A stretch of DNA of 64,000 nt, taken from the NCBI GenBank assembly GCA_018829965.1, contig JAHJTG010000016.1:29537-93536 (forward strand), in the 5' to 3' direction. The DNA comes from Patescibacteria group bacterium (GTDB lineage: Bacteria > Patescibacteriota > Minisyncoccia > Minisyncoccales > Staskawiczbacteraceae). A program made the translations under genes and the position numbers. Under the pieces are notes generated by a model. It was not told the origin of the DNA, made no database searches, and saw nothing but the letters and a program-made list of their open reading frames with translations. Of the stretch, positions 1 to 62,523 are shown in pieces (position 1 is the stretch's first letter; each line of letters opens with the position of its first letter).

Positions 1-1203
1 CGGGTTAAGCTTGGAAGCGGAGCGCGCGGGCAAATAACCCGCGATGCAGCCAATTAAAAAAGAAAATCCTAGACTGAATATAATCAATTGGGGAGTTATT
101 GATGCCTGTAGATATAAATTACCGGTTGCTTTAACAGCAAATTCTATAGCCTTGGCCAAACCTAATCCTAAAATCATCCCTCCAATTCCTCCAAATAGTC
201 CAAAAAACCCGGATTCTATTAAGAAAATAGTATTAATAGCGGAATTCTTAGCGCCAATAGCCTTCATGATGCCGATTTCTTTCGTTCTTTCTCGAACTGA
301 AGTATACATAGTATTCATAATTCCTACCCCGCCGACGATAATAGCGATTGAAGCAAAACCGAAAATAGCTATTTGTATCATTCCCAATATACTGCCCACG
401 ATATCCATTACTTTTTCAGAACTTAAAACAGAAAATGAAGGAGAATCTGCTCCCCTTACCCTCTTTCTGGTTTCTAAAAGATTGCTTTTAATATTTTCAA
501 TTACTTCGTCTATTTCGTAGCCCTGCTTAGCTCTTGCTAAAACAATCTTAGCTCCTTTTTTTTCACCAGTGATATCTTTAAAAATATCTAAATCAACGGT
601 AATTGTAGAATCGTCCTGTTTATTTCCCAAAGACTTTAAAACTCCGGAAATTATGAATTTCCTTCCGCTAATAAAAGCTTCGTCTCCAACTTTCATCCCT
701 GGAAAAACATCTGTAGGAACAGCTGAACCGACAATAATTTCTTTTTTACCAATAACAGGCCAATCCCCTTCTTTTATGCTCCAGCCAAAGTCATTTTTTA
801 AAATATCCATTCCGTCTTTCCAAGAAACGCCGTTTATTAATATTGTTTTAACTTTTCCTTCGTGTCTAACAGCTTCTCCTTTATAATTCATGGGCACGAT
901 TGTTTCCACTCCTTCTGCTTTTTTAATTGCGTCCATATCTTTTTCCGTTAGCTCAAGGCCTCCACTCATCATAGTTGCCATATCGGTTATCTCTCCAGGA
1001 AAAATCATAATCAAGTCTTTGCCCATCATTTTTAATTGCTGCATTAAAGCTGTTTTTATCCCCTCGCTTAAAGACATTAAGGAAACAATCAAAAATACCC
1101 CGATGACAACACCGATTATAGTAAGCCAACTGCGTAAACGCCTAGCCTTTAAGCTTTTTATGGCAATTTTAAAGTATTCTTTTATGAAGTTTATTTTTCC
1201 CAT
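1..1203 (-). CDS. ABC transporter permease, MacB/FtsX family (3' end runs off the window)
   Basis: Own translation of the minus strand from ATG at 1203: MGKINFIKEYFKIAIKSLKARRLRSWLTIIGVVIGVFLIV..., open to position 1 (...IGIMKAIGAKNSAINTIFLIESGFFGLFGG...YLPARSASKLNP). N-terminal TM, large loop, C-terminal FtsX-type TM block. Starts 2 nt after the ATPase stop. Absent from the ORF track because there is no stop in the window. Confidence 0.85.
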   Translation of the reverse strand, partial: MGKINFIKEYFKIAIKSLKARRLRSWLTIIGVVIGVFLIVSLMSLSEGIKTALMQQLKMMGKDLIMIFPGEITDMATMMSGGLELTEKDMDAIKKAEGVETIVPMNYKGEAVRHEGKVKTILINGVSWKDGMDILKNDFGWSIKEGDWPVIGKKEIIVGSAVPTDVFPGMKVGDEAFISGRKFIISGVLKSLGNKQDDSTITVDLDIFKDITGEKKGAKIVLARAKQGYEIDEVIENIKSNLLETRKRVRGADSPSFSVLSSEKVMDIVGSILGMIQIAIFGFASIAIIVGGVGIMNTMYTSVRERTKEIGIMKAIGAKNSAINTIFLIESGFFGLFGGIGGMILGLGLAKAIEFAVKATGNLYLQASITPQLIIFSLGFSFLIGCIAGYLPARSASKLNP

Positions 1204-1205
1204 AA

Positions 1206-1943
1206 TTATGATTTATGTGAGTTTTGTTCCCATAACACTTTTTCTTCTTGAAAATGGTTATGAATTATCTGCCCGTCCTGAATATGAATTATATTCTGGC
1301 TATAATGGGCAATAGTCGGGTCATGAGTTACAACAATAATTGTTTTCTTTTCTTTTTTATGTAATTCTGATAAAGCTTCCATAATTATTTTCCCTGTGCT
1401 GGAATCCAAATTACCCGTAGGCTCATCGGCGATTATTATTTCCGGGTCGTTAGATAGAGACCTGGCAATTGCAACTCTTTGCTGTTCTCCGCCAGAAAGC
1501 TCGCCTGGCCTGTGATGAGCCCTTTTTTGCATATCAAAAGATGCTAATAATTTTTCCGCTCTTTCTTTTCTTTCTAATTCTGGCACTGATTGAAAAATCA
1601 TCGGCATTATTATGTTTTCCAACGCGTTAAGATTTTGCAAAAGATTAAATTGCTGGAAAACAAACCCAATTTTTTGACCCCTGATTTTAGCTAATTCATT
1701 TTCAGAAAAACCAGAGACATTCTCCCCTTCCAAGAATATTTTTCCTTTTGTCGGAACATCTAAAAGGCCTAAAAGATACATTAAGGTTGATTTGCCAGAA
1801 CCAGAAGGTCCCATTATCGTAACAAAAGAACCCTTCCTTATTTCTAAGTTTATTCCTTTAAGAACAGGAAGTTCTATCTTGCCTAATTGATAGATCTTCC
1901 AGACGTTTTCTAATTTGATTAAAGACTCAGACATGCTTGACAA
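1206..1943 (-). CDS. ABC transporter ATP-binding protein (MacB/LolD type)
   Basis: Walker A GPSGSGKST, signature LSGGEQQRVAIARS, Walker B IIIADEPTGNLD, H-loop VTHD. Immediately upstream of the FtsX-type permease. Confidence 0.93.
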   Translation of the reverse strand: MSSMSESLIKLENVWKIYQLGKIELPVLKGINLEIRKGSFVTIMGPSGSGKSTLMYLLGLLDVPTKGKIFLEGENVSGFSENELAKIRGQKIGFVFQQFNLLQNLNALENIIMPMIFQSVPELERKERAEKLLASFDMQKRAHHRPGELSGGEQQRVAIARSLSNDPEIIIADEPTGNLDSSTGKIIMEALSELHKKEKKTIIVVTHDPTIAHYSQNIIHIQDGQIIHNHFQEEKVLWEQNSHKS

Positions 1944-2040
1944 GGTTTTAATAGTGTATTATGATATATGTATAAATTAAATTGTTTTTTAAGAAATAAA
2001 GGATGGCGTTCGTCCTTTAATACAGAACGTATAAACAGAA

Positions 2041-2553
2041 ATGGATTTTAAAGATTGGAGATTTAAAATGAAAAAACGAAAAGGTTTAACGACGCTGAAT
2101 TTTTTGTTAATGATTATTATTTTTTTATCCTTTGTAGTCTCAGTAGGCTTAATAGACCTCGCCATAAGAACAAACGCGAGGCTAACCAACGAGCAAGTAA
2201 TCGCGGAACCCAACACTGATAGTAGCTATAAGAGCGTTCCTTATGATTCTAACTGCGACGAACCTAACTGTTATACTATCGGCTATTCTGGAGACGAACA
2301 TGGAACTGGGTGCACGGTCAGATATTTAAAAGACCTTATGGTAAGAATATCGATAGTAGTTGACAAGACTGAAGTAAAAGACACAGAGAAGAAGGCTGCC
2401 GAGCTACTCAAAACGGCGAAAAAAATGATTGAACAGAATGACAAGATAATTAGCACAGAAACTATCACAGATATAGACGGAGTAGGATTTATCTGCCAAG
2501 AATTCAAGCTCACTCTTAAGTCCGCTGATCCAAATTCTCCTCCTTCTTCCTGA
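2041..2553 (+). CDS. hypothetical membrane-anchored/exported protein (start may be the MKKRKG Met at 2068)
   Basis: 170-aa ORF with a basic N-terminus and one hydrophobic helix (LNFLLMIIIFLSFVVSVGLIDL). Followed by a good rho-independent terminator on the same strand. Lone plus-strand gene between the efflux adaptor and the ATPase. Confidence 0.55.
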   Translation: MDFKDWRFKMKKRKGLTTLNFLLMIIIFLSFVVSVGLIDLAIRTNARLTNEQVIAEPNTDSSYKSVPYDSNCDEPNCYTIGYSGDEHGTGCTVRYLKDLMVRISIVVDKTEVKDTEKKAAELLKTAKKMIEQNDKIISTETITDIDGVGFICQEFKLTLKSADPNSPPSS

Positions 2554-2577
2554 CACTAGCTTCTCTGGCAACCAAAG

Positions 2578-2611
2578 GCGTTAACTATCAAAAGTTAACG
2601 CTTCTTTTTTT
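2578..2611 (+). terminator. rho-independent terminator
   Basis: gcgttaac-tatcaaaa-gttaacgc hairpin followed by ttcttttttt. Confidence 0.75.
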
Positions 2612-2685
2612 ACATACGAATTTTAAAAAGCAGATTTATCGTTTACCTTCACGGGAACAGTTCCTGCGAACTTTATCTGTGAGTT

Positions 2686-2706
2686 TACGGGGGTGCGACC
2701 CCCGTA
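2686..2706. repeat. GC hairpin TACGGGGG-n5-CCCCCGTA, stop-proximal (copy 1 of 2)
   Basis: tacgggggtgcgacccccgta, 2 nt from the adaptor-gene stop. Near-identical to the copy at 4624-4654. Confidence 0.8.
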
Positions 2707-2708
2707 GC

Positions 2709-4229
2709 TTATTCAATCACAATTTCCTCACCCTCTATCAAACCGGAGATGACTTCTACTTTACCATCACTCCCCTCTAATCCAATCTGTATTCCTATTT
2801 CTTCTTGTTTCTTGTCTTTTAAAACTAAAACTGTAATTTTTCCGTTTTCTTGAACAGCTTCTTTCGGCACCACCAATACATTATTTTTTTCTGCGGTTTT
2901 TATAACAATATCAACCGTCATCCCAGGTTTTGCACCTTCTTTTAATTCATCAAAAGCAATCGTAACTTCGTAATAGACAACTCCGTCAACTAGTTTTCCA
3001 GCTGGATTAATTGTTATTACCTTTCCCGTCAATGTTTCGTTTGAAAAAGCAGCTACCTTAATATCAACTGAATTCCCATTTTTAATCTTAACAATATCTT
3101 CTTCATAGATATCAACCTTTACTTGAAACGGGTCTAAAGAAATCAAAGAAATAGGCAATTCTGTAGCTTGGGCTATTTCACCAACTTTCTTATCCACTTT
3201 TGTCACTATAGCTTTTATTGGGCTACGAAGCGAAGCATCGTTAATCTGTGTTTGTAATAAACTAACGTTTGCCTCTGCCTCATTCACTTTTGCTTGATAA
3301 TAGTCAATGTCTTCCTGTCTTGGCTTGGCTTTTTTAAAAGCGAGTTCGTCTTCAGCTGTTTGAAAAGCGATTTTATCAGAAGAAATGGCCTGCTGGTCAT
3401 CAGTAACGCTAGTTAAACTTGTAATGATATACGACCTATGATTATCTAATATTGTTTTATCAGCAGACGAAACTTTTGAATAATAGGCTGCTGATTCGCA
3501 AGTTTCTCTAATAATCTTTAGAGCATTAGAAGTACTGGTTAATCCAATAATTGTTTTAGAAACTGCGCTGTTAATATTGTCGTTAGTTGAATTACTTTTA
3601 GCTACATCTAAGTACGGCTTAACTATTGTCAAAGCTTCTCCAATCACATCTTTATTGTCTCTCACTTTTGTGCCTTCTTGGTCGCCAGCGTTAAAATAAC
3701 TGGTTTGAATTGTGCCAACAGCGTTATAGGCATTGTAGATTTTCAAATGAGCATCGTCTAGTCCATTTAAAGCATCTTGATAGGCTTTATTCAAATCATC
3801 CTGGGCCGCATTTCTTGCGCTTTCCACGACCTTAATGTCCTCGGCAGTAGAACCAGCTATTAATTTATCGTATTGGGTTTGAGCCACAGCTAAAGATGCT
3901 TCAGCTCCATTAAGCTGAACATAAAGCTGGTTTATTTCTAATTTAGCCAAAGTGCTCCCTTTTTCTACAATATCTCCAACTTTAATATCCATTCTTTCAA
4001 TTCTTCCTGAAGTTTTAAAACCAAGGTTTATTTCTTGAGCACCTTCCACAGAACCAGTTTCTGCAACTTCTTGGATAATATCTCCTCTGACAACTTTAAC
4101 TGTTTTTAAAGCGCTATCCCCTTTTTTAAAAATATTTCCAAAAAGGAAAAAGGCTATTATCAATATAATAACTGATATTATAATTATTTTTTTCTTTGTT
4201 TTTATTATATTTAGTATTTTTTTATGCAT
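2709..4229 (-). CDS. efflux periplasmic adaptor, HlyD/MacA family
   Basis: N-terminal TM (IIIISVIILIIAFFLF), lipoyl-like hairpin motifs, long coiled-coil middle, C-terminal beta-barrel segments. Start placed at MHKKILN (4229); the track ORF extends to 4319 but only adds non-membrane residues. Confidence 0.8.
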   Translation of the reverse strand: MHKKILNIIKTKKKIIIISVIILIIAFFLFGNIFKKGDSALKTVKVVRGDIIQEVAETGSVEGAQEINLGFKTSGRIERMDIKVGDIVEKGSTLAKLEINQLYVQLNGAEASLAVAQTQYDKLIAGSTAEDIKVVESARNAAQDDLNKAYQDALNGLDDAHLKIYNAYNAVGTIQTSYFNAGDQEGTKVRDNKDVIGEALTIVKPYLDVAKSNSTNDNINSAVSKTIIGLTSTSNALKIIRETCESAAYYSKVSSADKTILDNHRSYIITSLTSVTDDQQAISSDKIAFQTAEDELAFKKAKPRQEDIDYYQAKVNEAEANVSLLQTQINDASLRSPIKAIVTKVDKKVGEIAQATELPISLISLDPFQVKVDIYEEDIVKIKNGNSVDIKVAAFSNETLTGKVITINPAGKLVDGVVYYEVTIAFDELKEGAKPGMTVDIVIKTAEKNNVLVVPKEAVQENGKITVLVLKDKKQEEIGIQIGLEGSDGKVEVISGLIEGEEIVIE

Positions 4230-4623
4230 TGTTTTTATGGTTTTTAATAAAGTTTTTAATTGACCTATCGCGAGTCTTTTCAACGCTTGCTGAAAAACAG
4301 CAGGCAGGAAGCTCGTCATTTTTTAAATGATACCTTAAACATTCGCAACAAGTCCCCTTCCTCTCGCAATCTGGATAAGTGCAGGGACAGGCTTCTAAAT
4401 TCTTTTGTTTTTTTTACACTCCATCTATTCTATTGGATTAGTTTATTGTATATTATATCGCTTTATTATTATTTTATTATAACAAAAAATTGCCTATAGG
4501 GCAATTTTACTAGTTTTAACTATACGATAATCTGTCGCACAATGAGTTAAAAAATGGAAACCTGATTTCCTCCTCATGTCCTCCGCCTAACATTTCCCGC
4601 TACATTTCTAATTTCTAATTATT

Positions 4624-4654
4624 AAGCTTACGGGGGTCGTACCCCCGTAAGCTT
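4624..4654. repeat. GC hairpin AAGCTTACGGGGG-n5-CCCCCGTAAGCTT (copy 2 of 2)
   Basis: aagcttacgggggtcgtacccccgtaagctt, downstream of the prmC stop. Confidence 0.8.
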
Positions 4655-4671
4655 TAATCTCTATTAAAAAT

Positions 4672-5529
4672 TTAAATTTGTATTATTATATATCGCCATT
4701 TGTTAAATTGGTCTTTATGAAATCGGTAATTTTTGTATCCGAACTTCTTTAACAATCTTTCAATCTCTTTTTTCTGTTCAGGGCTGAACTCCATAAATAT
4801 TTTTCCTCGCCCTTCCGAAGCCTTGCTGAGTCCGTCCGTAGCTTTAAGTGAAGGAGGAGCGAAGGAGGGTGCTTCTTTTAGAAACCTCCTGATGCAAAAA
4901 AACCCGTCTTTACCGCCGAATATTGCTTTTTTAGGTTCGTGTTTTAGAACAGCTTTTTGAACTTTCTTTAAGTTTCCTTTGCTGATATATGGAGGATTAG
5001 CAAAGATATAATCATACTCTCCTTTTATCTTGCTAAAAACATCGGATTGAATTATCTTATATCTTTTTTTATCTATATTGTTCAGCTTTAAGTTTAATTC
5101 AATTTGTTTTAAAAACCTTTTATCCTTTTCAGCAAAATCAACCTTGCTATTTTTAATATTCTTAAGAATTGCCAAGCCAATACACCCTGACCCAGAAAAG
5201 ATATCTAAAATATTCAGCTTAATATTTCCTGTTTTTACTTTTTCAGCCGTATATCCAGCCGTGTAAAAAATTCGCGATCGCGAATTTTTTACACGGCTGG
5301 AATAATCCTTTTTAATTCCTTTAATCGCCTCCCTCACCCAATACTCTGTTTCCTGCCTAGGGATTAAAGGCTTTTTAGATAAATCAATTTTACAGCCTAA
5401 AAAACTAACAAAGCCGATGATATAGTCTATCGGCTCGCCGTTTTGCAATCGCTTTAAATCCTTTTTAAATCCTTTTGTTACTTTTCCGTTATATTTTTCC
5501 TTTAATAACCAACTGGCTTCTTTTTGCAT
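4672..5529 (-). CDS. prmC: release-factor glutamine N5-methyltransferase (PrmC/HemK) carrying in-frame repeat insertions
   Basis: SAM motif LDIFSGSGCIGLA and catalytic NPPY (FANPPYI). Two GC-rich insertions (5254-5299 and about 4800-4875) interrupt otherwise collinear HemK sequence. Confidence 0.88.
   Translation of the reverse strand: MQKEASWLLKEKYNGKVTKGFKKDLKRLQNGEPIDYIIGFVSFLGCKIDLSKKPLIPRQETEYWVREAIKGIKKDYSSRVKNSRSRIFYTAGYTAEKVKTGNIKLNILDIFSGSGCIGLAILKNIKNSKVDFAEKDKRFLKQIELNLKLNNIDKKRYKIIQSDVFSKIKGEYDYIFANPPYISKGNLKKVQKAVLKHEPKKAIFGGKDGFFCIRRFLKEAPSFAPPSLKATDGLSKASEGRGKIFMEFSPEQKKEIERLLKKFGYKNYRFHKDQFNKWRYIIIQI
5254..5299. repeat. perfect 46-bp palindrome inside the prmC reading frame
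   Basis: ccagccgtgtaaaaaattcgcgatcgcgaattttttacacggctgg is its own reverse complement. Translated as SSRVKNSRSRIFYTAG. Confidence 0.95.
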
Positions 5530-5588
5530 ACAATTTATTAAATGAGTTTGGAGAAATTAGTGAGGTCGGGACCTCACTAATAATTTTT

Positions 5589-5780
5589 AACTGTTAAACG
5601 AGGCAATAAGTTTAAAAGTAAATTTCGCAGGCAATTTAGCATGGTTTCGTCGATTGGCGACCGCAACACCCGGTGTTGTCGCAACACCGGGTGTTGCGGA
5701 GTGTGTTGCGGAGTAAATTTAAATAGCCCTGAGACGCTGGACGAAGGGACTATCGGTACTTTTAAACTCGTTGCCGAACG
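5589..5780 (-). repeat. F1 long-hairpin element (CGCTCGG...CCTCGCT superfamily), copy a
   Basis: Plus strand aactgttaaacgagg-[ggcaataagtttaaaagta ... tacttttaaactcgttgcc]-gaacg. Ends 1 nt from the rlmE stop. Interior holds nested GC palindromes (gcaacacccggtgttg x2). Confidence 0.85.
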
Positions 5781-6377
5781 CTATTGTCGAGTAAATTTTT
5801 TCGCCACAATGTAAAACTCCTTACTGTGTTTTATAACTGCCATAGGCCTGACTCTTTTTAAAACCTCAAAGTGTTTTTCTACCTCTTTCACAAATTCATC
5901 TACGCATTCCCCTTCAAAGATTTTAGATATGAAACTTCCGCCTCTTCTTAACACAATCTTTGCTATTTCAAATGCTTTTTCAGAAAGTTCTAAAGACTTT
6001 CCCACATCAGACCATATTACTCCGGTAGTCTTTGGAGCCAAATCAGCAACTAATGCATCGCACTTTCCTTGCCATGCTTTCAAATCATCTTCTGTTATTT
6101 CTAAAATATCTTTTTTAATAAAAGAGATATTGTTCCTCGGAGGTATTTTAATATCCTCAATATCAATGCCCAATACCCTGCCCTTCGGACCAACCGTATC
6201 TGAAATATATATTATCCAAGAACCCGGAGCGCAACCTAAATCTAAAACCACGTCATTTTTCCTAATGACTCTGAGTTTATCATTTATTTCTTTCAGCTTA
6301 TAGACTGACCTTGCGGGATAACCCTCTTTTTTTGCTTTGCGAGTATAGAACTCGCGTTTTTTATCTTTGCGGTACAC
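5781..6377 (-). CDS. rlmE: 23S rRNA 2'-O-ribose methyltransferase RlmE/FtsJ (present ORF starts with GTG at a repeat junction)
   Basis: ARSVYKLKEIN and DLGCAPGSW SAM motif, plus the DxxxK-type FtsJ core. The first codon GTG straddles the left end of MITE F3a. Confidence 0.88.
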   Translation of the reverse strand: MYRKDKKREFYTRKAKKEGYPARSVYKLKEINDKLRVIRKNDVVLDLGCAPGSWIIYISDTVGPKGRVLGIDIEDIKIPPRNNISFIKKDILEITEDDLKAWQGKCDALVADLAPKTTGVIWSDVGKSLELSEKAFEIAKIVLRRGGSFISKIFEGECVDEFVKEVEKHFEVLKRVRPMAVIKHSKEFYIVAKKFTRQ

Positions 6378-6506
6378 CCCGTTAGAAGTCCTTGACGAAA
6401 AAATTTATAAATAAATTTTTTCTATCAACAGAACAAAACATTAATTTAATAAACATTTGATTACCATATTAGTTGTTTGCTTTAATAAAAACAGACTTCT
6501 AACGTG
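6377..6506. mobile_element. F3 MITE copy a (TIR CCCCGTTAGAAGTC / GACTTCTAACGTG, TSD GTACA)
   Basis: 13-14 bp terminal inverted repeats. Identical 5-bp GTACA at 6372-6376 and 6507-6511. Interior related to copy c. Confidence 0.85.
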
Positions 6507-6526
6507 GTACATATTTGTATTATAAC

Positions 6527-6556
6527 AAAAAAAACCCGCTATAGACGGGCTTTTTA
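6527..6556 (-). terminator. putative rho-independent terminator after rplU
   Basis: Minus strand: aaaaaGCCCGtctatagCGGGTtttttttt. Short GC stem plus an 8-T run. Confidence 0.5.
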
Positions 6557-6562
6557 GAGAAT

Positions 6563-6877
6563 CTACTCTGCCTCTATCTTTAATATCTCTACTTCGGTAT
6601 AGGGCTGTCTGTGCCCCATCTTTTTATGAAAACGTTTCTTAGCCTTGTATTTATATATGGTAATCTTATCTCCCTTCCCCTGCTTTAAAATTTTTCCTAC
6701 AACCTTGGCTCCTTTTACTAAAGGAGTACCGATTTCTACTTTCTTGTTTCTTTCCAATAATAAAACTTCGGAAAAAATAATTTCCTCCCCTTCTTTTTTC
6801 TCTATTTTCTCAATCTTTAATTTTTCTTCGGGGGAAACAATATATTGCTTCCCACCGGTTTTTATTACTGCCAACAT
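6563..6877 (-). CDS. rplU: 50S ribosomal protein L21
   Basis: MLAVIKTGGKQYIV... and C-terminal GHRQPYTEV, typical of L21. Confidence 0.95.
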   Translation of the reverse strand: MLAVIKTGGKQYIVSPEEKLKIEKIEKKEGEEIIFSEVLLLERNKKVEIGTPLVKGAKVVGKILKQGKGDKITIYKYKAKKRFHKKMGHRQPYTEVEILKIEAE

Positions 6878-6894
6878 AAGTATTTTTGTTTTTT

Positions 6895-7043
6895 AACTGT
6901 TAAGCGAGGCAGTAGTTATAAAAGTGCCCCTCGCAGGCGATTTTGCATGGTTCCGCCTCGTGGCGGAAAAATCGCCGAGAGTGGAGATGACCAAACCTCG
7001 CAGGGGTTTGGATTATCGCCACTTTTATGGCTACTACCGAGCG
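6895..7043 (-). repeat. F1 long-hairpin element, copy b
   Basis: aactgttaagcgagg-[ggcagtagttataaaagtg ... cacttttatggctactacc]-gagcg. Ends 1 nt before the rmuC stop. Confidence 0.85.
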
Positions 7044-7044
7044 T

Positions 7045-8079
7045 CTATTCAATTAGAGACTGTTCAACCTCTTTTATAGTTTTAATATTATTTTCCGTAC
7101 CTGTTATTTTTACCACATCTTTATCTATTTTTGCAAGCTCTTTTGACGCTTTATTGTAAGAACCGACTGTTATATTCAAATGCCCGCCCATTTTCTTCAT
7201 ATATTCGCTGTATGTTCCCAAATGCCTTCCCAGCCTTTCAACTTCTTTTATAACCTCCTTTGCCTGTTCTGATATCTTCTGATTTTTCAATCCTTGCAAA
7301 ACCGTCTGCAAATAAGCAAGAAATGATGTCGGGGAAACAATTATTACTTTCTTTCTGCCAGCGTAATATATCAGATTATTCGTATCTTCGGTTATCGTCC
7401 CCACTTTATTGATAAGCAAATCGTAATATACAGCTTCAGAAGGAATAAACATAAAAGCAAAATCCATTGTGTTTTCTTCTGGTTTTACATATTTTGATGT
7501 CTCTTCAATCCTGGCTTTTAAATCTTGGACAAAAGCATTCTCATATCTCTTTTTGTCTTCTGGATTCCTTGATTCTAGAATGCGGTTATAGTTTTCCAAG
7601 CTGAACTTTGAATCAATCGGAATAATGCGCTTGTCTACAAAAACCACTGCGTCAACTATTGTCCCGTCTTTAAACGAATACTGCATTTGAAAAGAACCGG
7701 GAGGCAAAACATTTTTTAAAACAGTTTCAAGATAATACTCTCCTAAAACTCCTCTTTGTTTGGGATTTTTCAAAATATCCTGAAGGCTCTGCAACTGGTC
7801 GGCAAAACCTACGACCTGACGGTTGGTTTCATCAAGTTTAGTTAGTTTTTCAGTAACATCGCTGATAATTTTAGCGCTTTGTCCGAACTGCACTTGAATA
7901 GTTTTATTTGATTCAGACAACTGGCTTTCCAAAGTTTTCCTGATATCGCTTAATTGCTGTTGAATCATTAAAGAGGCATCGCTTTTTGTTTCAGATTTCT
8001 TCTTAAATAATAAAAAAAACACTCCTGTCAAGCCGAAAAAAATTAAAACCAAAAAGCTGATTATTATTGCTTGTTCCAT
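7045..8079 (-). CDS. rmuC: DNA recombination protein RmuC
   Basis: N-terminal TM, long coiled coil, C-terminal RmuC nuclease-like block (VDAVVFVDKRIIPIDSKF...FMFIPSEAVY). Confidence 0.85.
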   Translation of the reverse strand: MEQAIIISFLVLIFFGLTGVFFLLFKKKSETKSDASLMIQQQLSDIRKTLESQLSESNKTIQVQFGQSAKIISDVTEKLTKLDETNRQVVGFADQLQSLQDILKNPKQRGVLGEYYLETVLKNVLPPGSFQMQYSFKDGTIVDAVVFVDKRIIPIDSKFSLENYNRILESRNPEDKKRYENAFVQDLKARIEETSKYVKPEENTMDFAFMFIPSEAVYYDLLINKVGTITEDTNNLIYYAGRKKVIIVSPTSFLAYLQTVLQGLKNQKISEQAKEVIKEVERLGRHLGTYSEYMKKMGGHLNITVGSYNKASKELAKIDKDVVKITGTENNIKTIKEVEQSLIE

Positions 8080-16750: not shown

Positions 16751-19747
16751 TTAAGTTTGTCTAAAATCGCAAATATCTCTGAAGTCGCAATACTCGCACT
16801 GCCAGCCCGGAGTTGGCTCAAACTTACTATCTTTTATTGCCTCAATTTCTGCGATTATCTTTTCTTTTCTATCCTGCTTTTCTTTATCTGAGCCTAGAAA
16901 TGATGCTTGGCTATTGTTATCTAGGTAGTAATAGGCTAATTCTTTTGGTTTAATATTTAAAACCTCTTCTGCTGCTATTTGATAGATTAATAACTGGGAT
17001 TTATCGTCAGCTTCTAGCTTTTCTTTCGGTTTACCAGTTTTGTAATCAATAATCTTTACTCCATTTTCAGAATCATCAATCCTATCTATCACTCCGTATA
17101 AATTATATCCCCCTACTTTTAAATTGAAAGGTAGCTCTAATGCCAACTCATTGTTAATTTTTAAAATCTTTGGAGGATTCTTTTTAAAATCTTCGTAAAA
17201 ATCCTTAATTATCCTTTTGCCTAGTTTATAATAATCATCTTTTTGTTTTTTTGATTCGTACCACTCGCCAATCCAATTTCGTTCATAAAGCTTTTCCAAT
17301 ATTTTAAATTCATCCCCTTTCCCACTCTTCTTCCCAGTTATTGGGACGTATGACGTCCCAATAACTTTTTTACTAGGGCCGAATAGAGATTCTTGATTTA
17401 CTTTACTGGCTTCGTTTACATTTTTTAAAAAATTGTAAAGAGTGGCGTGCATTGTTTTACCGAACGAAAACACCGCCTTGCCCCTAATAGGAATCTTTAG
17501 AATAAACCCAAACTTGTACTGCAACGGACATTTTTCAAAGGCAGCCAGTTGGGAGAAAGAAAAATGCTCTGGCAAATACTTATTCTCTAATGTCTTAGGC
17601 TTTCTTATCTCTACCTTATCGGCTAATAAGCCCTTCTTTTCTTTAACTGCATCCCCTTTTGATTCTTCGTATCCCATTTCAATTAAAAATCTGGAAAGCT
17701 TCTTTTTTCTTTGACCTCCGTAATCTTGGGCCGATGTGAAATATAATCCTTTTTTAGCTCTCGTCATTGCCACATAACAAATACGCCTTTCTTCTTGCAA
17801 ATGCACGTCGCCTGTTGGTTTAATATCCTTAATTAATTCATCTGGTAATTCAATCGGTTCTTTTCTTTCTATCACAGGGAAACGCCTATCAACCATGCTT
17901 ACCAGAAACACATACTTAAACTCCAAGCCCTTAGCCGCGTGTATTGTCATTATTTTAACCATATCAGGACCTTGTTCTGGGTCAAATTCAAGTTTTCCTT
18001 CTTCTCCTGATTCAAGTTCTAAAGTAAGCTCCTCCATAAAGTTTTTTAAAGCAGGAGCAATTGCTGACTCCTCAAAACTTTGAACCTTATCGTAAAATTG
18101 GTTTAACAGGTCTAACTTCTCTTTTTCGTCTCGATTAATTAAATACTTTAAGTATCCGGAATCATTCATAAACGCCACTAATATCTCAATAACCGTTTTG
18201 TCTTTAACTAAAATGCTGTGTTTTTTGATTATAGAAAGGATAAAGCTTATCTTTTCTTTAGTTTGGGCGCTTACTCCAGTAATCAGCGGGGCTTCTTGCA
18301 ATGCCTCAAAAAGTGATTTGGTTTTTTTATGACCATATTGAGTAATAGTAGCAATATCCTCATCTGATATTTCCAAAAACGGCAAACTCAAAATCCTATA
18401 AACCGCTGCGCATTCATGGTAGTTATCCAATAATTTAAAGTAAGAGATAATATCTAAAATGACTGGCTTTGAATAAAGTCCTCTTGAAGCTAAAAATTGG
18501 TATGGCATGCCCGCTCTTTCTAAGGCTCTGACAAAGGGAATCGCTGTATCGTTTGCTCTTACTAAAATAGCAAAGTCGCTATAACTTGAATCTTTATCTC
18601 TCTTTAAAATTTCAGCAATCTTTTTTATTGTTTTCCTTACTTCTTCGTCTAAGCTTTTGGCACTAATATGTTCTATCACTCCTTCCCCCTTGTTCTCTGC
18701 AATTAACTTTTTATCAATCTTGTTTACAAACTCCAATCTATCAGGGTCGTTTGCTTTAATAAAAACATACGCTTTGTCTAAAATGTTTTGCGTAGACCTA
18801 TAGTTATTTATTAAAGATATTTGTTTGGCTTTTGTCCCGATTTCATCGAGGATCCTCGACGGCGAAGCCGTCGGGAAAAAATCCTTAGCAAACTGCACAA
18901 TATTATTAAAAGAAGCGCCTCTCCATCTATAAATAGCTTGGTCGTCGTCGGCACAGACAGTTAAATTATTTCCCGGTTCGGCTAATATCTTTATTAACTC
19001 ATACTGGGCGTAGTTTGTGTCTTGGAACTCGTCAACTAAAATATATTTAAACTTTTCCCTATACTTTTTTAAAATCAACGGACGCTTTTTAAATAAAAGC
19101 AAACAATAGTTTATTAAATCACCAAAATCCAATACGTCGTTATCTAAAAGCATTTTTTGATAAATATAGTAGGCATTAGCAACTTCTTTTATTCTTTCTG
19201 TCTCTTGGACTTCCGGCAAATCGTCTAAGCTTGTTTTTAAGCTATCTGCATATTTTAAATAGTCTTCTGGGTAAATACCTTGGTCTTTGCAGTGGGAAAA
19301 ATGATAAATTAGGGATTGTATAAACTTCGTGGGGTTCCCCAATGATTTGTAATAATTCAATTCAAATTTATTTAAGTTTTGACGAGCTAACAGCCACCCG
19401 GCGGTTCCATCTAATATTTTAAAATCGGGAGGCAATCCAATATCTAAAGCATTTTCCTTTAAAACTCTTTCGCAGAAGGCGTGGAATGTAGAAATCCACA
19501 AATCCATATATCCAAAGTCCAAAAGCTGGTCTACTCTTTCTTCCATCTCCCCTGCTGCCTTTTCAGTAAAAGTAACTGCTAAAATCTCCTCTGGCTTTGC
19601 CAAGCCCTTTTCAATTAAATTAACTATTCGCTGAGTAATAACCGTGGTTTTACCAGTTCCCGCCCCAGCCACAATTAAAAGAGGCCCCTTACCATGGACC
19701 ACCGCTTCCTTTTGCTCTTTGTTTAGTTTTTCCAAATTTAACGCCAT
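16751..19747 (-). CDS. UvrD/PcrA-type SF1A helicase fused to a C-terminal Cas4-like Fe-S PD-(D/E)XK nuclease
   Basis: AGAGTGKTT, DEFQDTN, helicase motifs through VAMTRAK. C-terminus has CPLQYKF, IDRIDD...IIDYKTGK...QLLIYQ, CEYCDFRDIC. Start set at MALNLEKL (19747), directly after F2 copy b; the track ORF reads on into the repeat. Confidence 0.88.
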   Translation of the reverse strand: MALNLEKLNKEQKEAVVHGKGPLLIVAGAGTGKTTVITQRIVNLIEKGLAKPEEILAVTFTEKAAGEMEERVDQLLDFGYMDLWISTFHAFCERVLKENALDIGLPPDFKILDGTAGWLLARQNLNKFELNYYKSLGNPTKFIQSLIYHFSHCKDQGIYPEDYLKYADSLKTSLDDLPEVQETERIKEVANAYYIYQKMLLDNDVLDFGDLINYCLLLFKKRPLILKKYREKFKYILVDEFQDTNYAQYELIKILAEPGNNLTVCADDDQAIYRWRGASFNNIVQFAKDFFPTASPSRILDEIGTKAKQISLINNYRSTQNILDKAYVFIKANDPDRLEFVNKIDKKLIAENKGEGVIEHISAKSLDEEVRKTIKKIAEILKRDKDSSYSDFAILVRANDTAIPFVRALERAGMPYQFLASRGLYSKPVILDIISYFKLLDNYHECAAVYRILSLPFLEISDEDIATITQYGHKKTKSLFEALQEAPLITGVSAQTKEKISFILSIIKKHSILVKDKTVIEILVAFMNDSGYLKYLINRDEKEKLDLLNQFYDKVQSFEESAIAPALKNFMEELTLELESGEEGKLEFDPEQGPDMVKIMTIHAAKGLEFKYVFLVSMVDRRFPVIERKEPIELPDELIKDIKPTGDVHLQEERRICYVAMTRAKKGLYFTSAQDYGGQRKKKLSRFLIEMGYEESKGDAVKEKKGLLADKVEIRKPKTLENKYLPEHFSFSQLAAFEKCPLQYKFGFILKIPIRGKAVFSFGKTMHATLYNFLKNVNEASKVNQESLFGPSKKVIGTSYVPITGKKSGKGDEFKILEKLYERNWIGEWYESKKQKDDYYKLGKRIIKDFYEDFKKNPPKILKINNELALELPFNLKVGGYNLYGVIDRIDDSENGVKIIDYKTGKPKEKLEADDKSQLLIYQIAAEEVLNIKPKELAYYYLDNNSQASFLGSDKEKQDRKEKIIAEIEAIKDSKFEPTPGWQCEYCDFRDICDFRQT

Positions 19748-19876
19748 AATTATGAGCGAGGAAGGAATGAAAATTGAGGAAGGAAAAAGTAAAAGTTTAC
19801 TTTTATTTTTGGCAACCGAAAATTTCATTCCGACCGAGCGATTAATTATATAGATAGCGAAGCTATCTCTATAATT
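19748..19876 (-). repeat. F2 leader element, copy b
   Basis: Gene-sense: ATTATAGAG-[ATAGCTTCGCTAT]-CTATATAATTAATCGCTCGGTCGGAATGAAA...TTTCATTCCTTCCTCGCTCATAATT-ATG. Confidence 0.85.
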
Positions 19877-20366: not shown

Positions 20367-20400
20367 GAACATTCTGACATTCTTGAGAATGTCAGAATGT
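20367..20400. repeat. P-palindrome copy 1 (ACATTCTnACATTCT / AGAATGTnAGAATGT)
   Basis: aacattctgacattc-ttga-gaatgtcagaatgtt. Confidence 0.85.
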
Positions 20401-20424
20401 TTTTATATACCTCCAAAATTTTAA

Positions 20425-21194: not shown

Positions 21195-21228
21195 CATTCC
21201 GACATTCTCAAGAATGCGAGAATGTCGT
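21195..21228. repeat. P-palindrome copy 2 (degenerate)
   Basis: cattccGACATTCTCaagaatgcGAGAATGTCg. Overlaps the ArsR-like stop and lies 15 nt upstream of the dgkA ATG. Confidence 0.7.
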
Positions 21229-21495
21229 TATAAATTTGTAGAAAATTTTGCCGTAAGGTGAAAGAAAATGGGCGACTTCCCTATCCCGATATTTTTTATT
21301 AACCAAACCTGCCTGCGTTAATTTTTGCGTATGTCCCGAGATTGTTTTTATATTACATTCTAAACTCTCGGCAATATTGTCTAAACTAATTCCCCCGTTT
21401 TCGGCAACCAGTTTTAAAATCTCGATTCGGCGATGATTAGATATGCCTTTAAAGTGTCTTTCTAATTGTTTTGCGGTTTTTATTTTTGTTTTCAT
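21208..21495 (-). CDS. ArsR/SmtB-family winged-helix transcriptional regulator
   Basis: 95 aa. Contains FKGISNHRRIEILKLV...ISLDNIAESLECNIKTISGHTQKLTQAGLV (HTH_5-type). Confidence 0.75.
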   Translation of the reverse strand: MKTKIKTAKQLERHFKGISNHRRIEILKLVAENGGISLDNIAESLECNIKTISGHTQKLTQAGLVNKKYRDREVAHFLSPYGKIFYKFITTFSHS

Positions 21496-21501
21496 ATCCT
21501 C

Positions 21502-21535
21502 ATTTTACCATAACATTCTCACATTCTCGAGAATG
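21502..21535. repeat. P-palindrome copy 3 (perfect 34 bp)
   Basis: aacattctcacattctcgagaatgtgagaatgtt. Lies 7 nt upstream of the ArsR-like ATG. Confidence 0.95.
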
Positions 21536-21592
21536 TGAGAATGTTTATTTACTCTTTGAATTATGTTTCCAAAATTTTAAGCTTTTCCATAA

Positions 21593-22315
21593 TTATTTCT
21601 TTGAATTTTTGCCGTTAATAACAATTAGGGCGTGAAAATCCTGATATAAACGAAAATCTTTTCTCAAGTTTTCCTCAAATAATTTTTGCAGAAACTGATA
21701 ATCCGTCTTGTCTGCCAAATTACGCTCTTTAACTAATCTTCTGGTATATTCATCTATAACAAAAACTGGTTTATCTAAAGCGTAAAGTAAAATGCTATCA
21801 GCTGTTTCCGGTCCAATGCCTTTTAATTTTAGCAGTTCTTCCCTTAATTCTTTGAGTTCTGTTTTTTTCATTCTTTCCAAACTGCCATCCCGATTTAATC
21901 GAGGATCTCCCGATGAAATCGAGGATCCTCGACTCTGTCGGGACTCGACAGAGTCGGGATAATTCTCCACGATAAATTTGGATAAATTAAATAGATATTG
22001 GGCCTTGGTTTTGTAAAATCCCGAGGGTTTAATTAAAGGCACTAATCTTTTTGCGCCCAATTGATAAAGAGCCTTTAGCGAATTTATCTTTGCTTTCTTT
22101 AAATTATTTAAAGCCAATTCTACGTTTTTCCAATTTGTTCTCTGAGTTAAAATCGCCCCGATTGCTATTTCCTCTCTTTCTCGTCTAATTTTAGACCTTT
22201 TACACCAAAGTTTCCATTGTCCCTTAGGCGTTCCGTATTTCTTTTTTAACTCTTTATATAATTTCTCAAATTGTTTAACGTCGGATGTTAAACATTCACG
22301 TCGGGTGTTAAACAT
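21593..22315 (-). CDS. endonuclease III-related HhH-GPD DNA glycosylase with in-frame GC-rich insertion
   Basis: ILTQRTNWKNV and the HhH motif LKGIGPETADSILLYALDKPVFVIDEYTRR. About 23 extra residues (SRQSRGSSISSGDPRLNRDGS) are encoded by the repeat at 21889-21958. Confidence 0.8.
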   Translation of the reverse strand: MFNTRRECLTSDVKQFEKLYKELKKKYGTPKGQWKLWCKRSKIRREREEIAIGAILTQRTNWKNVELALNNLKKAKINSLKALYQLGAKRLVPLIKPSGFYKTKAQYLFNLSKFIVENYPDSVESRQSRGSSISSGDPRLNRDGSLERMKKTELKELREELLKLKGIGPETADSILLYALDKPVFVIDEYTRRLVKERNLADKTDYQFLQKLFEENLRKDFRLYQDFHALIVINGKNSKK

Positions 22316-22324
22316 TCATTTTTG

Positions 22325-22356
22325 ACATTCTCACATTCTCGAGAATGTGAGAATGA
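22325..22356. repeat. P-palindrome copy 4
   Basis: acattctcacattctcgagaatgtgagaatga. Lies 10 nt upstream of the nth-like ATG. Confidence 0.9.
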
Positions 22357-45117: not shown

Positions 45118-45192
45118 TATCTTCTTACGAATTACGAATATTTTCGAATTACGAATTCGTAATTCGGTGACATTCGTAATTCGTAGGGTTAT
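45118..45192. repeat. F6 CGAATTACGAAT palindromic element, copy 1
   Basis: cttacgaattacgaatattttcgaattacgaattcgtaattcggtgacattcgtaattcgtagg. Abuts the rnc ATG. Confidence 0.85.
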
Positions 45193-45621
45193 TTATTCTT
45201 CTATTCCAATTTCTTTGTAAACCGTACCCAACACTCCATTGATAAATTTGCCGGAACTTTCTCCGCCAAATGTTTTTGCAAGTTCAATGGCTTCATTTAT
45301 AGCAACTTTCGGAGGAACTTCTTTTTTATCGCTGTAAATCAACTCATAAAGGCCTATTCTCAAAACATTTCTATCAATAAGAGATATCTGCAAAATTGGC
45401 CACTCTGGAGCTGCTTTTTCAATAATATTATCCAGTTTCTTTAAATGCTTTGTCGCGCCTTCTATTAAGTCCCAAACAAATTTAGTATCTTCAAGGCCCG
45501 GTCCAAAATTTTGAATATTTCTTTCCACGATTTTATCCAAAGTGTTTTTCTTTTGGCCATAAAAATCCCATTCATATAAGCTCTGCATTGCGATTGAACG
45601 TGATAAATGTCTACTAGCCAT
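45193..45621 (-). CDS. nusB: transcription antitermination factor NusB
   Basis: 142 aa. [14 protein letters not shown]..., [31 protein letters not shown]. Confidence 0.9.
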
Positions 45622-45692
45622 TTTTCTTACGAATTACATATTAAACCGAATTACGAATTCGTAATTCGAAAGTATTCGTAATTCGTAGGATA
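45622..45692. repeat. F6 CGAATTACGAAT palindromic element, copy 2
   Basis: cttacgaattacatattaaaccgaattacgaattcgtaattcgaaagtattcgtaattcgtagg. Abuts the nusB ATG. Confidence 0.85.
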
Positions 45693-46082: not shown

Positions 46083-46186
46083 CTCCGTTAGAAGTTTGCG
46101 ATTGTATAAATTAATGGCAAAATTCCAACTGGAATTTTGCCATTAATTTTTTATAATTATTTTTGCAGTGGCAAACTTCTAACGGG
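46083..46186. mobile_element. F3 MITE copy b
   Basis: TIR ctccgttagaagtttgc / gcaaacttctaacgggg (15 bp perfect core). Flanks gcaag / gtaag (4 of 5). The interior is itself a hairpin (aattaatggcaaaattcca...tggaattttgccattaatt). Confidence 0.8.
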
Positions 46187-61386: not shown

Positions 61387-61417
61387 AAAATAGAATAATA
61401 ATATATAAAAATACCCT

Positions 61418-61451
61418 CCGTGAAAATCACGCTATAGCGTGATTTTCACGG
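61418..61451. promoter_or_regulatory. 34-bp perfect palindrome upstream of rnhB (operator-like)
   Basis: ccgtgaaaatcacgctatagcgtgattttcacgg. About 45 bp including the flank is identical to 62022-62070. Confidence 0.6.
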
Positions 61452-61459
61452 ATACGTCA

Positions 61460-61999
61460 CTATATCAATTTAAAAACTTTTTCGAAATAATTTTCATTAT
61501 CAATCGACTCTAAAATACCGAAACGAACATACTTATTTAAATTAAAAAATTTAACTAAAAGTCCTATTTCTTTTTTACATTCATAGGGAGTTATAAAAAT
61601 ACTCTTCTGCAATTTACAAAATCCTATTTTCTTTAATTTTTGGCGAAGCGCGTCTCTTCCTCTTTTATATTTTTCTGGAATATCAAAGGCAACTATTCTC
61701 CATTTCCCATCCCATTTCCCTTTTTTGTTTTTTAAATTATCAAGCTGATAATTTAATGCTTTTAATTCACCTTTTTTTGTTAACAATATTTCTATTAAGC
61801 CGTTTTCTTTTTTGTTTTTTTCTATAAACTTAAAGCGATAGAGATCGCTTATTTCTCTTTTTAATTCTTTTTGGTTTATTTTCTTCCATTCTTTAGAAAC
61901 CGTTCTTAATATTTTTAACTGCTTACCATGCGTATAACTACAACCAAAAGCTATCCCGCCCAATAAAAGTAATAATATTTTTTCTTTTACTGTATTCAT
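61460..61999 (-). CDS. PaaX-like regulator-family protein (winged-helix N-terminus, Cas2/VapD-like C-terminal fold)
   Basis: C-terminal WDGKWRIVAFDIPEKYKRGRDALRQKLKKIGFCKLQKSIFITPY matches my recollection of the PaaX C-terminal domain. Confidence 0.5.
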   Translation of the reverse strand: MNTVKEKILLLLLGGIAFGCSYTHGKQLKILRTVSKEWKKINQKELKREISDLYRFKFIEKNKKENGLIEILLTKKGELKALNYQLDNLKNKKGKWDGKWRIVAFDIPEKYKRGRDALRQKLKKIGFCKLQKSIFITPYECKKEIGLLVKFFNLNKYVRFGILESIDNENYFEKVFKLI

Positions 62000-62028
62000 T
62001 ATTTTGTTATATCACAAAAACATAAAAT

Positions 62029-62076
62029 ATACCCTCCGTGAAAATCACGCTATAGCGTGATTTTCACGGAGGGTAT
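62029..62076. promoter_or_regulatory. 48-bp perfect palindrome upstream of the PaaX-like gene (operator-like)
   Basis: ataccctccgtgaaaatcacgctatagcgtgattttcacggagggtat. Confidence 0.6.
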
Positions 62077-62523
62077 ATAAACGATAATAAATAAACAATA
62101 AAAAAATGAAAACGATATCCTCCCCGCACCCCTATGGGTCGGTTTTCCTGTAGGGGAATAAAAAAAATCGCTCGTTTGTCTATGAGACAATAAACGAGCG
62201 ATATCTGGAACCCCTACCTTTCAGGAGGAAAGGGGTTGACAATAAAATCGGGAGATAAACAGCAAAACAAGCTAAAGGAATAAAAATATGGATGATTGAA
62301 CGAGCAGTCGCACCCGGTGAAGAAATGCAAACTGCTCGCAGGAGGAGGAAGAAGAAGATTTCGGTTTTTATCAGATTGTTAGATATTCAGAATATCTTTT
62401 AATTTAATTGTCCAAAGAACAATTAATTAATTATTATATCATAATAAAAAATACCAGCCTGTCCGTCAATAGCATGTTATCCCCCTGCTTGCTTCAGATA
62501 TTTTAATGAGTTAGAATATCAAT

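Follow-up and report, generated by a model that had tools for sequence, protein, structure and literature searches.

An inherited 48-bp palindrome translated within prmC of a Patescibacteria group bacterium

Coding DNA is normally free of long, perfect inverted repeats, and the described exceptions are the decaying palindromic elements of Rickettsia and the mitochondrial genes of hairworms. How does such a palindrome come to lie within prmC, a housekeeping gene for a release-factor methyltransferase, of an ultra-small Patescibacteria group bacterium, and what keeps its two arms identical? We sought to answer this question for a 64,000-nt stretch of contig JAHJTG010000016.1 (assembly GCA_018829965.1), hereafter the window, in which prmC occupies an intact minus-strand open reading frame (ORF, 4672-5529). 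We found that a bacterial lineage keeps 38-48-bp palindromes in this one gene across deep divergence, with arms that change together. The literature searched contained no account of such elements, either for prmC or for Patescibacteria.

A perfect palindrome in the linker of PrmC

The palindrome spans 48 bp (5254-5301) and is formed by two 24-nt arms, TCCAGCCGTGTAAAAAATTCGCGA and TCGCGAATTTTTTACACGGCTGGA, joined without a spacer and symmetric at 48 of 48 positions, with an axis between 5277 and 5278 that coincides with a codon boundary. A preliminary description, made from the letters of this DNA, had reported a perfect, self-complementary 46-bp palindrome at 5254-5299; its perfection held, and its extent was corrected, as the 46-mer lies at 5255-5300 and extends by one base on each side. 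The frame is kept across the palindrome and both arms lie entirely within coding sequence, where they encode SSRVKNSRSRIFYTAG (residues 77-92) in the interdomain linker, N-terminal to the S-adenosylmethionine (SAM) motif LDIFSGSGCIG, just as had been described. In 20 dinucleotide-preserving shuffles of the window the longest arms reached 9-12 nt, and 100 shuffles yielded no chance match to the 23-nt arm within 3 mismatches. Consistent with the strong hairpin proposed earlier, the RNA fold of the palindrome region had a z of -7.2 relative to shuffles. Beside the palindrome lies an imperfect third copy of the arm end (5244-5253), which is also able to pair with the far arm (I2, 85%) and which falls in 11 codons that are absent from the sister orthologue described below. 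From their sequence, the two copies CAGCCGTATA and CAGCCGTGTA read as the remains of a local duplication or a template switch.

An assembly or amplification artefact, such as a join of inverted reads, is extremely improbable as the source of this symmetry. Short-read assemblers do break at the palindrome: Logan contigs of two further runs, ERR2191545 and SRR6514730 (L108/L109), matched the window at 941-5283 and 1788-5283 with 0 mismatches, and both ended at 5283. This is the last 31-mer that is not wholly inside a palindrome starting at 5254, and a de Bruijn graph with k = 31, the value used by Logan, should break there. The left arm and the centre were thus reproduced exactly, and look-ups of contigs with prmC, rplU, ftsJ and the upstream gene at 7045-8079 returned none covering the far side. 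The sequences on either side of the palindrome belong to the N- and C-terminal parts of a single conserved ORF, collinear and in one frame, other long palindromes of the same organism (61417 and 62027) are identical in two independent European Nucleotide Archive (ENA) assemblies, and analogous palindromes occupy the same linker site in at least 16 of 82 orthologues from independently assembled genomes. On these grounds we rejected the chimera, which the preliminary description had named as a way in which its reading could fail. One further contig (L107) starts inside the 62027 palindrome, and contig ends coincide with the borders of long perfect palindromes; by breaking short-read assemblies at their borders, such palindromes can fragment or mis-join metagenome-assembled genomes.

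Inheritance, paired change and concentration in prmC

We next placed the window's PrmC in a tree of 80 orthologues with the linker masked (82 orthologues had DNA; L- and P-numbers label related loci or genomes and proteins). Its closest relative, L004/P0019, shares ~65% amino acid identity outside the palindrome, and 14 of 36 four-fold sites there are identical, near saturation. At the same codons L004 carries a homologous element, TCCAGCCGTGCAGAAATCTCGCGA and TCGCGAGATTTTCGTACTAGTGGA, which reads TCC AGC CGT GCA GAA ATC TCG CGA up to the axis and TCG CGA GAT TTT CGT ACT AGT GGA beyond it. The inner 22 bp are perfect and, where the window has TT..AA, they have CT..AG, a mirrored double change; the outer right arm has decayed, leaving 18 of 24 pairs symmetric. 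Because the sister orthologue carries this homologous element at the same codons, the sequences indicate that the palindrome is inherited and not a recent insertion. A more distant relative, L079 (47% PrmC identity), has a 48-bp palindrome, TTCAGCCAGGTAAATTATTCACGATCGTGAATAATTTACCTGGCTGGA, that is 75% identical to the window's and symmetric at 23 of 24 pairs, and its differences from the window arm are mirrored on the other arm. This copy lies outside the linker, beyond the rplU terminator and ~35 nt before the start codon of prmC, and its similarity to the window palindrome (score 26) exceeded the null maximum of 22 in 300 trials. Between palindromes of distant genomes, sequence identity was 75-83%.

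Palindromes were also found in the linkers of many other orthologues. Linker length ranged from 11 to 70 amino acids, with 44 in the window's PrmC and 14-20 in palindrome-free orthologues, whose linkers formed no hairpin. Among the 82 orthologues with DNA, at least 16 had arms of 12 nt or longer at the linker, and in 82/82 the ORF stayed in frame through linkers of 14-70 aa whatever these held, palindromes of 26-48 bp included (Table 1). Palindrome lengths in the orthologues include non-multiples of three. Excision or translational bypass of the hairpin is unlikely, as all orthologues keep the frame and avoid stops through the 26-48-bp palindromes. Linker sequences at the palindrome site differ widely between orthologues, and where orthologues have similar residues they also have palindromic DNA; the same residues without it would, by the preliminary description, have refuted its reading.

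The two arms of these linker palindromes change together. In the 38-bp class, changes on both arms were found at 18 of 19 mirror positions, and 88% of cells were complementary, compared with 40-48% when the partner was slid by 1-3 columns (0 of 500 shuffles reached 88%). When all 17 unselected 23-aa linkers were taken, 72% paired (38-46% with slid partners) and the covariation score was 0.53 against 0.14-0.21. The centre pair 52:55, which cannot form in a hairpin loop, was complementary in 12 of 12 sequences, and, of 24 long palindromes within prmC or directly beside it (a few lie just beyond the ORF), 16 had a loop of 2 nt or less. Since a hairpin has no need of central symmetry, this points to a process at the DNA level. 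Partly decayed palindromes were found in L004, L042 and L045. Of the two origins offered by the preliminary description, very recent insertion is contradicted by the element in L004 and by the spread of covarying linker palindromes, and active maintenance agrees with the mirrored changes among the window, L004 and L079 and with the covariation across orthologues.

Four further positions in prmC, outside the linker, also have recurrent palindromes. Palindrome B, at one of them, encodes the conserved helix IRKFLAxAKNFL as AGGAAATTTTTGGCC..GGCCAAAAATTTCCT, and it is only for palindrome B, in other orthologues, that both arms encode conserved protein; the arms in the window encode hypervariable linker. 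In L076 both arms of palindrome B have changed (ACGCGTTTTTGGCC..GGCCAAAAACGCGT) and the amino acids co-vary (KFLA..AKNF to AFLA..AKNA), which, judged from the sequence, looks like DNA symmetry overriding protein sequence. Together, these genomes form a data set on the origin and upkeep of perfect stems, by template switching or by selection, that also bears on nucleic-acid symmetry dictating protein sequence.

The palindromes are concentrated in prmC. In a census of 82 loci (arms of at least 12 nt, GC of at least 30%), prmC held 19 palindromes in 63.7 kb and all other ORFs of the same loci held 10 in 694 kb, a ratio of ~20:1, and no other family with 15-33 members had more than one. PrmC has the highest rate of lineage-specific insertion among the locus families; families 3 and 7 have similar rates and 0 palindromes. 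Outside the gene, L043 carries a 56-bp palindrome at 4890-4945 (26-nt arms, one mismatch), ~1.07 kb upstream of prmC, which lies in a 359-aa frame by one ORF call and is intergenic by another.

Origin and upkeep of the palindrome

Searches for known signals and families returned no match for the palindrome. In Rfam, only tRNAs reached the gathering score, and sub-threshold matches were to generic miRNA-hairpin models. A parS-like site was rejected, as no match to the parS consensus occurs in the window at up to 3 mismatches, and so was an origin or terminus near prmC, where GC skew is uniformly negative with no switch. The central octamer GCGATCGC, which is also the centre of palindromes in L004, L105 and L078, is the HIP1 octamer of cyanobacteria, but with 12 copies in 896 kb of related loci it lacks the high iteration of HIP1. 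In its inner core, A6-TTCGCGATCGCGAA-T6, the palindrome resembles the A-tract/stem/T-tract hairpins with which intergenic DNA of this genome is filled and in this respect recalls bidirectional terminators and the repetitive extragenic palindromes (REPs) and bacterial interspersed mosaic elements (BIMEs) built from them. Unlike these, the element lies in an ORF, is low in copy, fails the terminator scan and has no REP-associated tyrosine transposase (RAYT); its T-run is inside the stem, unlike that of a Rho-independent terminator, in which a GC-rich stem with a loop of 3-8 nt is directly followed by a U-tract. It also departs from REPs and REP doublets (REPINs) mobilised by RAYTs in being intragenic and single-copy in the DNA covered, with no Y1 transposase seen; the PaaX_M-domain gene that twin palindromes flank (see below) is no RAYT, and its palindromes are unlike the one in prmC.

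Two known groups of coding palindromes offer closer comparisons. Hairworm (Nematomorpha) mitochondria have perfect inverted repeats of up to 284 bp in many translated genes; these are gained and lost between species, their perfection is ascribed to active maintenance, for which template switching or conversion has been put forward, and their function is unclear (PMC6649704). Like them, the prmC palindrome is a perfect repeat inside a gene, with the frame kept and arm identity maintained over time. Unlike them, it has a bacterial host, belongs to a 38-48-bp size range, is concentrated in prmC and lies mostly in variable linker; both arms of the hairworm palindromes encode conserved protein, whereas those in the window do not, and in the prmC case covariation is traceable across many orthologues. 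Rickettsia palindromic elements (RPEs) form dispersed multi-copy families of ~150 bp (44 insertions in R. conorii) that code for a conserved peptide and whose repeat identity declines over time (Ogata et al. 2000, 2002; summarised in PMC10969869 and PMC6649704). They and the prmC palindrome have in common palindromic DNA in frame in a bacterial housekeeping gene, at a position that the fold tolerates, and differ in that ours is 48 bp long, single-copy in the DNA covered and perfectly symmetric despite its age.

To explain these observations, we tentatively favour an inherited coding palindrome whose arms are corrected at the DNA level and whose stem-loop is also selected for at prmC. An inverted repeat would have settled in PrmC, in the flexible linker that joins its N-terminal domain to the methyltransferase domain, where the SSRVKNSRSRIFYTAG peptide would be a passenger in a tolerated, disordered loop, and the element would be one of a lineage of palindromes that, in this branch of Patescibacteria, is tied to the prmC locus. 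Its arms would be held identical by copy correction, most likely through replication template switching on the fold-back hairpin, and perfection would then not mean youth: a change in one arm would be erased or copied to the other, letting the sequence drift with its symmetry, including that of the centre, intact. Selection probably also favours a strong stem-loop at prmC, because unbiased correction leaves the prmC specificity, the leader copy in L079 and the 75-83% conservation unexplained. The likeliest effect of such a stem-loop would be to throttle prmC expression, as a 22-24-bp mRNA stem could be a barrier to ribosome or polymerase or a duplex of the length cut by RNase III. In organisms with very little known regulation, the ~20-fold preference for prmC hints that release-factor methylation may be controlled by hairpins.

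Several observations weigh against this proposal. About 79% of orthologues are without a strong palindrome in prmC (present in 17 of 82), and any function must be dispensable for that reason. Presence showed no association with rplU/ftsJ lying upstream (p = 0.26), a result on which we also rejected the hairpin as an insulator against rplU/ftsJ read-through. The palindrome does not fit the terminator consensus, and a scan of 4400-7200 gave 6 terminator-like sites, none of which is the palindrome. Mismatches carried no clear RNA-strand signature, as G:U did not consistently exceed A:C in the sense strand (11:3-6 in the 38-bp class and 8:6 in the wider set), the DNA of this genome that was covered amounts to only ~72 kb, and arm-to-arm correction without bias fails by itself to explain either the conservation or the enrichment in prmC. 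Template-switch mutations can create perfect stems and multi-base compensatory changes in one event (Mönttinen and Löytynoja 2022, PMC8794818), and the mirrored multi-base differences among the window, L004 and L079 and within the 38-bp class are consistent with this; such hairpins were reported for RNA genes (rRNA), not translated sequence.

A neutral or selfish coding palindrome, with no effect on prmC expression, is in our judgement rather unlikely. It would have arisen once in a permissive loop, by template switching or inverted duplication, and would persist only through arm-to-arm correction and because its deletion would damage the gene. The absence of the palindrome from most orthologues, the scatter of palindromes over about five prmC sites, the symmetry through the centre, the partly decayed copies and the high insertion rate of PrmC all fit, and the same argument has been made for the hairworm palindromes (PMC6649704). 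What it leaves unexplained is the ~20-fold excess in prmC, given that families 3 and 7 are equally tolerant of insertions and hold no palindromes, as well as the related L079 copy elsewhere at the locus and a conservation far above that of four-fold sites. That copy and that conservation could instead reflect mobility rather than descent, with a small palindromic element (a miniature inverted-repeat transposable element (MITE), or an RPE- or REP-like one) inserted in frame. TAT flanks the window palindrome at both ends, locally duplicated palindromes are common in these genomes, and YCRCGATCGYGR-type cores recur in the palindromes of several genomes (11 observed, ~0.5 expected). We nevertheless regard mobility as a slim prospect: with up to 3-4 mismatches allowed, the arm had no second copy in the 64-kb window, another 8 kb of the genome or ~830 kb of related loci (L004 and L079 excepted), so that the genome-wide search for copies suggested by the preliminary description yielded none in the ~72 kb covered. 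Viral contigs likewise held no copy, their single match (L104) being a non-palindromic chance match. A metagenome scan is uninformative on absence, as its pattern, CCGTGNANAANNTCGCGATCGCGA, was one A too short for the real element (CCGTGNANAAANNTCGCGATCGCGA) and its 19 matches were chance hits in high-GC genomes. The element is only 48 bp (16 aa) long, compared with ~100-150 bp and a family peptide for mobile families; no transposase lies near it, the element as a whole is a single inverted repeat, and TAT is all that its two flanks share in the window, which is not a convincing target-site duplication, with no consistent duplication in L004 or L079. The window and L004 are moreover tree sisters that share the codon position, which fits descent.

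Central symmetry, a position in the leader (L079) or within the gene, and conservation between distant genomes would also suit a double-stranded operator, at which a dimeric DNA-binding protein such as a PaaX-like winged-helix regulator controls prmC. A PaaX_M gene lies between twin palindromes in four genomes, and in three of them the cores match the prmC palindromes of other genomes. Within the window, however, the prmC palindrome has little similarity to those around the PaaX_M gene (score 7, p = 0.06), 19-24-bp arms whose centres covary do not correspond to the needs of half-site recognition, and site sequences differ widely between orthologues, so that we hold an operator to be quite improbable. 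A PaaX-like regulator or a REP-RAYT-like unit was also rejected as the source of the palindrome, since similarity within the same genome was at chance level.

A bolder pair of possibilities, which we consider unlikely, is that prmC has a dedicated, lineage-wide cis dyad, in leader or coding sequence, read by a specific factor, or that an active palindrome-homogenising process writes novel peptide loops into the proteins of these bacteria. For the dyad, the candidate factor would be RNase III or a palindrome-binding PaaX/Cas2-like winged helix-turn-helix (wHTH) protein, and release-factor methylation would be controlled through a translated hairpin. With the homogenising process, the amino acids of the arms would be forced to co-vary, as in L076 palindrome B.

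Host gene, second insertion and other palindromes

The host protein is identical to NCBI MBU2540033.1 (Patescibacteria group bacterium), and its nearest relatives are from Candidatus Staskawiczbacteria and related Paceibacteria. It scored 137.7 bits with TIGR00536, above the cut-off of 115.5, and 177.2 bits with TIGR03534, below the equivalog cut-off of 199.1, a shortfall plausibly explained by two inserts. The NPPY and glycine-rich (GxGxG) motifs are invariant in the orthologue alignment. By these profile and motif matches the protein is assigned to the HemK/PrmC family of glutamine methyltransferases, in line with the PrmC identity given to it earlier. An AlphaFold model (predicted local distance difference test, pLDDT, 84; predicted template modelling score, pTM, 0.82) had low confidence (pLDDT <50) only at residues 88-100 and 228-240, both within inserts, and the model suggests that both insert peptides are peripheral loops compatible with the fold.

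Table 1. Features of the window's prmC gene and palindromes in orthologous prmC genes
Feature	Position or length	Strand	Basis or remark
prmC/hemK host gene, 285 aa	4672..5529	-	TIGRFAM scores, NPPY and FSGSGCIG motifs, orthologue alignment
Perfect palindrome, TCCAGCCGTGTAAAAAATTCGCGA and TCGCGAATTTTTTACACGGCTGGA	5254..5301	.	symmetry, shuffles, RNA fold z = -7.2
Imperfect third copy of arm end, CAGCCGTATA vs CAGCCGTGTA (5256-5265)	5244..5253	.	12 nt apart
Lineage-specific linker extension, residues 73-103 (KKDY + palindrome + YTAEKVKTGNI)	5221..5313	-	orthologue alignment; AlphaFold
Second GC-rich in-frame insertion, residues 224-242 (APPSLKATDGLSKASEGRG)	4804..4860	-	orthologue alignment
11-nt tandem repeat in second block, AGTGAAGGAGG/AGCGAAGGAGG	4847..4868	.	
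L028 linker palindrome, TATCTTACGATTTTTCAAGCTTGAAAAATCGTAAGATA	38 bp		perfect
L035 linker palindrome, TATACCCTGATTTTGTAAGCTTACAAAATCAGGGTATA	38 bp		perfect
L053, L060, L100, L081, L001 linker palindromes	38 bp		1-3 mismatches
L064 linker palindrome	42 bp		
L082 linker palindrome	42 bp		perfect
L105/P0097 linker palindrome	42 bp		one mismatch
L102, L040, L083 linker palindromes			arms of at least 12 nt
Palindrome B sites	L028 6575, L029 6575, L035 1807, L060 4265, L074 6596, L076 6560		

The preliminary description had also reported a second GC-rich, partly self-complementary block near the C-terminus. The GC-rich, in-frame addition stood (55% GC at 4800-4875, 34% window-wide), and its self-complementarity proved to be at chance level (fold z = +0.75; 150 of 200 shuffles folded as well). 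This block is absent from most orthologues, is partly common to P0002 and P0004, and sits at the position of palindrome B in other orthologues. The insertion is real and older, and its repeat is a tandem rather than an inverted one (Table 1). Upstream of prmC, strong GC-rich hairpins at 5556-5581 and 5661-5699 share the 250-bp gap (5530-5780) with repeated GTGTTGCGG motifs, and a hairpin with 15-bp arms after the prmC stop (4622-4656) brings the strong hairpins to four within 1.1 kb.

Elsewhere in the window, a gene for a 179-aa PaaX_M/Cas2-like protein (ORF 61460-61999, minus strand) lies between twin long perfect palindromes (61417-61452 and 62027-62078). The same bracketing, with palindromes ~600 bp apart, was found in L037 (7104/7720), L078 (8888/9481) and L096 (9853/10485), and the four proteins are 46-64% identical. 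Twin cores of TTCACGATCGTGAA or TACGCGATCGCGTA account for the matches to prmC palindrome cores of other genomes in three of the four, and the window's PaaX_M-flanking palindrome resembles the linker palindrome of L064. These twin palindromes could be operators or cassette ends.

Four CATTCTCACATTCTCGAGAATGTGAGAATG-type palindromes occupy successive intergenic gaps (20368-20401, 21200-21227, 21512-21545 and 22326-22355) around genes for DUF3175, diacylglycerol kinase, a small MarR/ArsR-like wHTH protein (21208-21495) and an HhH-GPD glycosylase, an arrangement suggestive of a local regulon or set of operators. On both sides of nusB (45193-45621) stand identical 22-bp palindromes, CGAATTACGAATTCGTAATTCG, at 45145-45166 and 45647-45668, and identical pairs bracketing single genes recur in related genomes (L033, L096). 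A near-perfect palindrome of 42-46 bp (46106-46151) lies at a switch in gene orientation (minus to 45977, plus from 46252), which may be a divergent promoter or regulatory region. GC-containing palindromes also occur within the ORFs of a UvrD/AddA-like helicase-nuclease (17336-17366 in 16751-19828) and the HhH-GPD glycosylase (21930-21956 in 21593-22315). Across ~896 kb of related loci, 14 of 66 CGATCG sites are the centres of long palindromes, and the extended core C[AG]CGATCG[CT]G was observed 11 times against ~0.5 expected.

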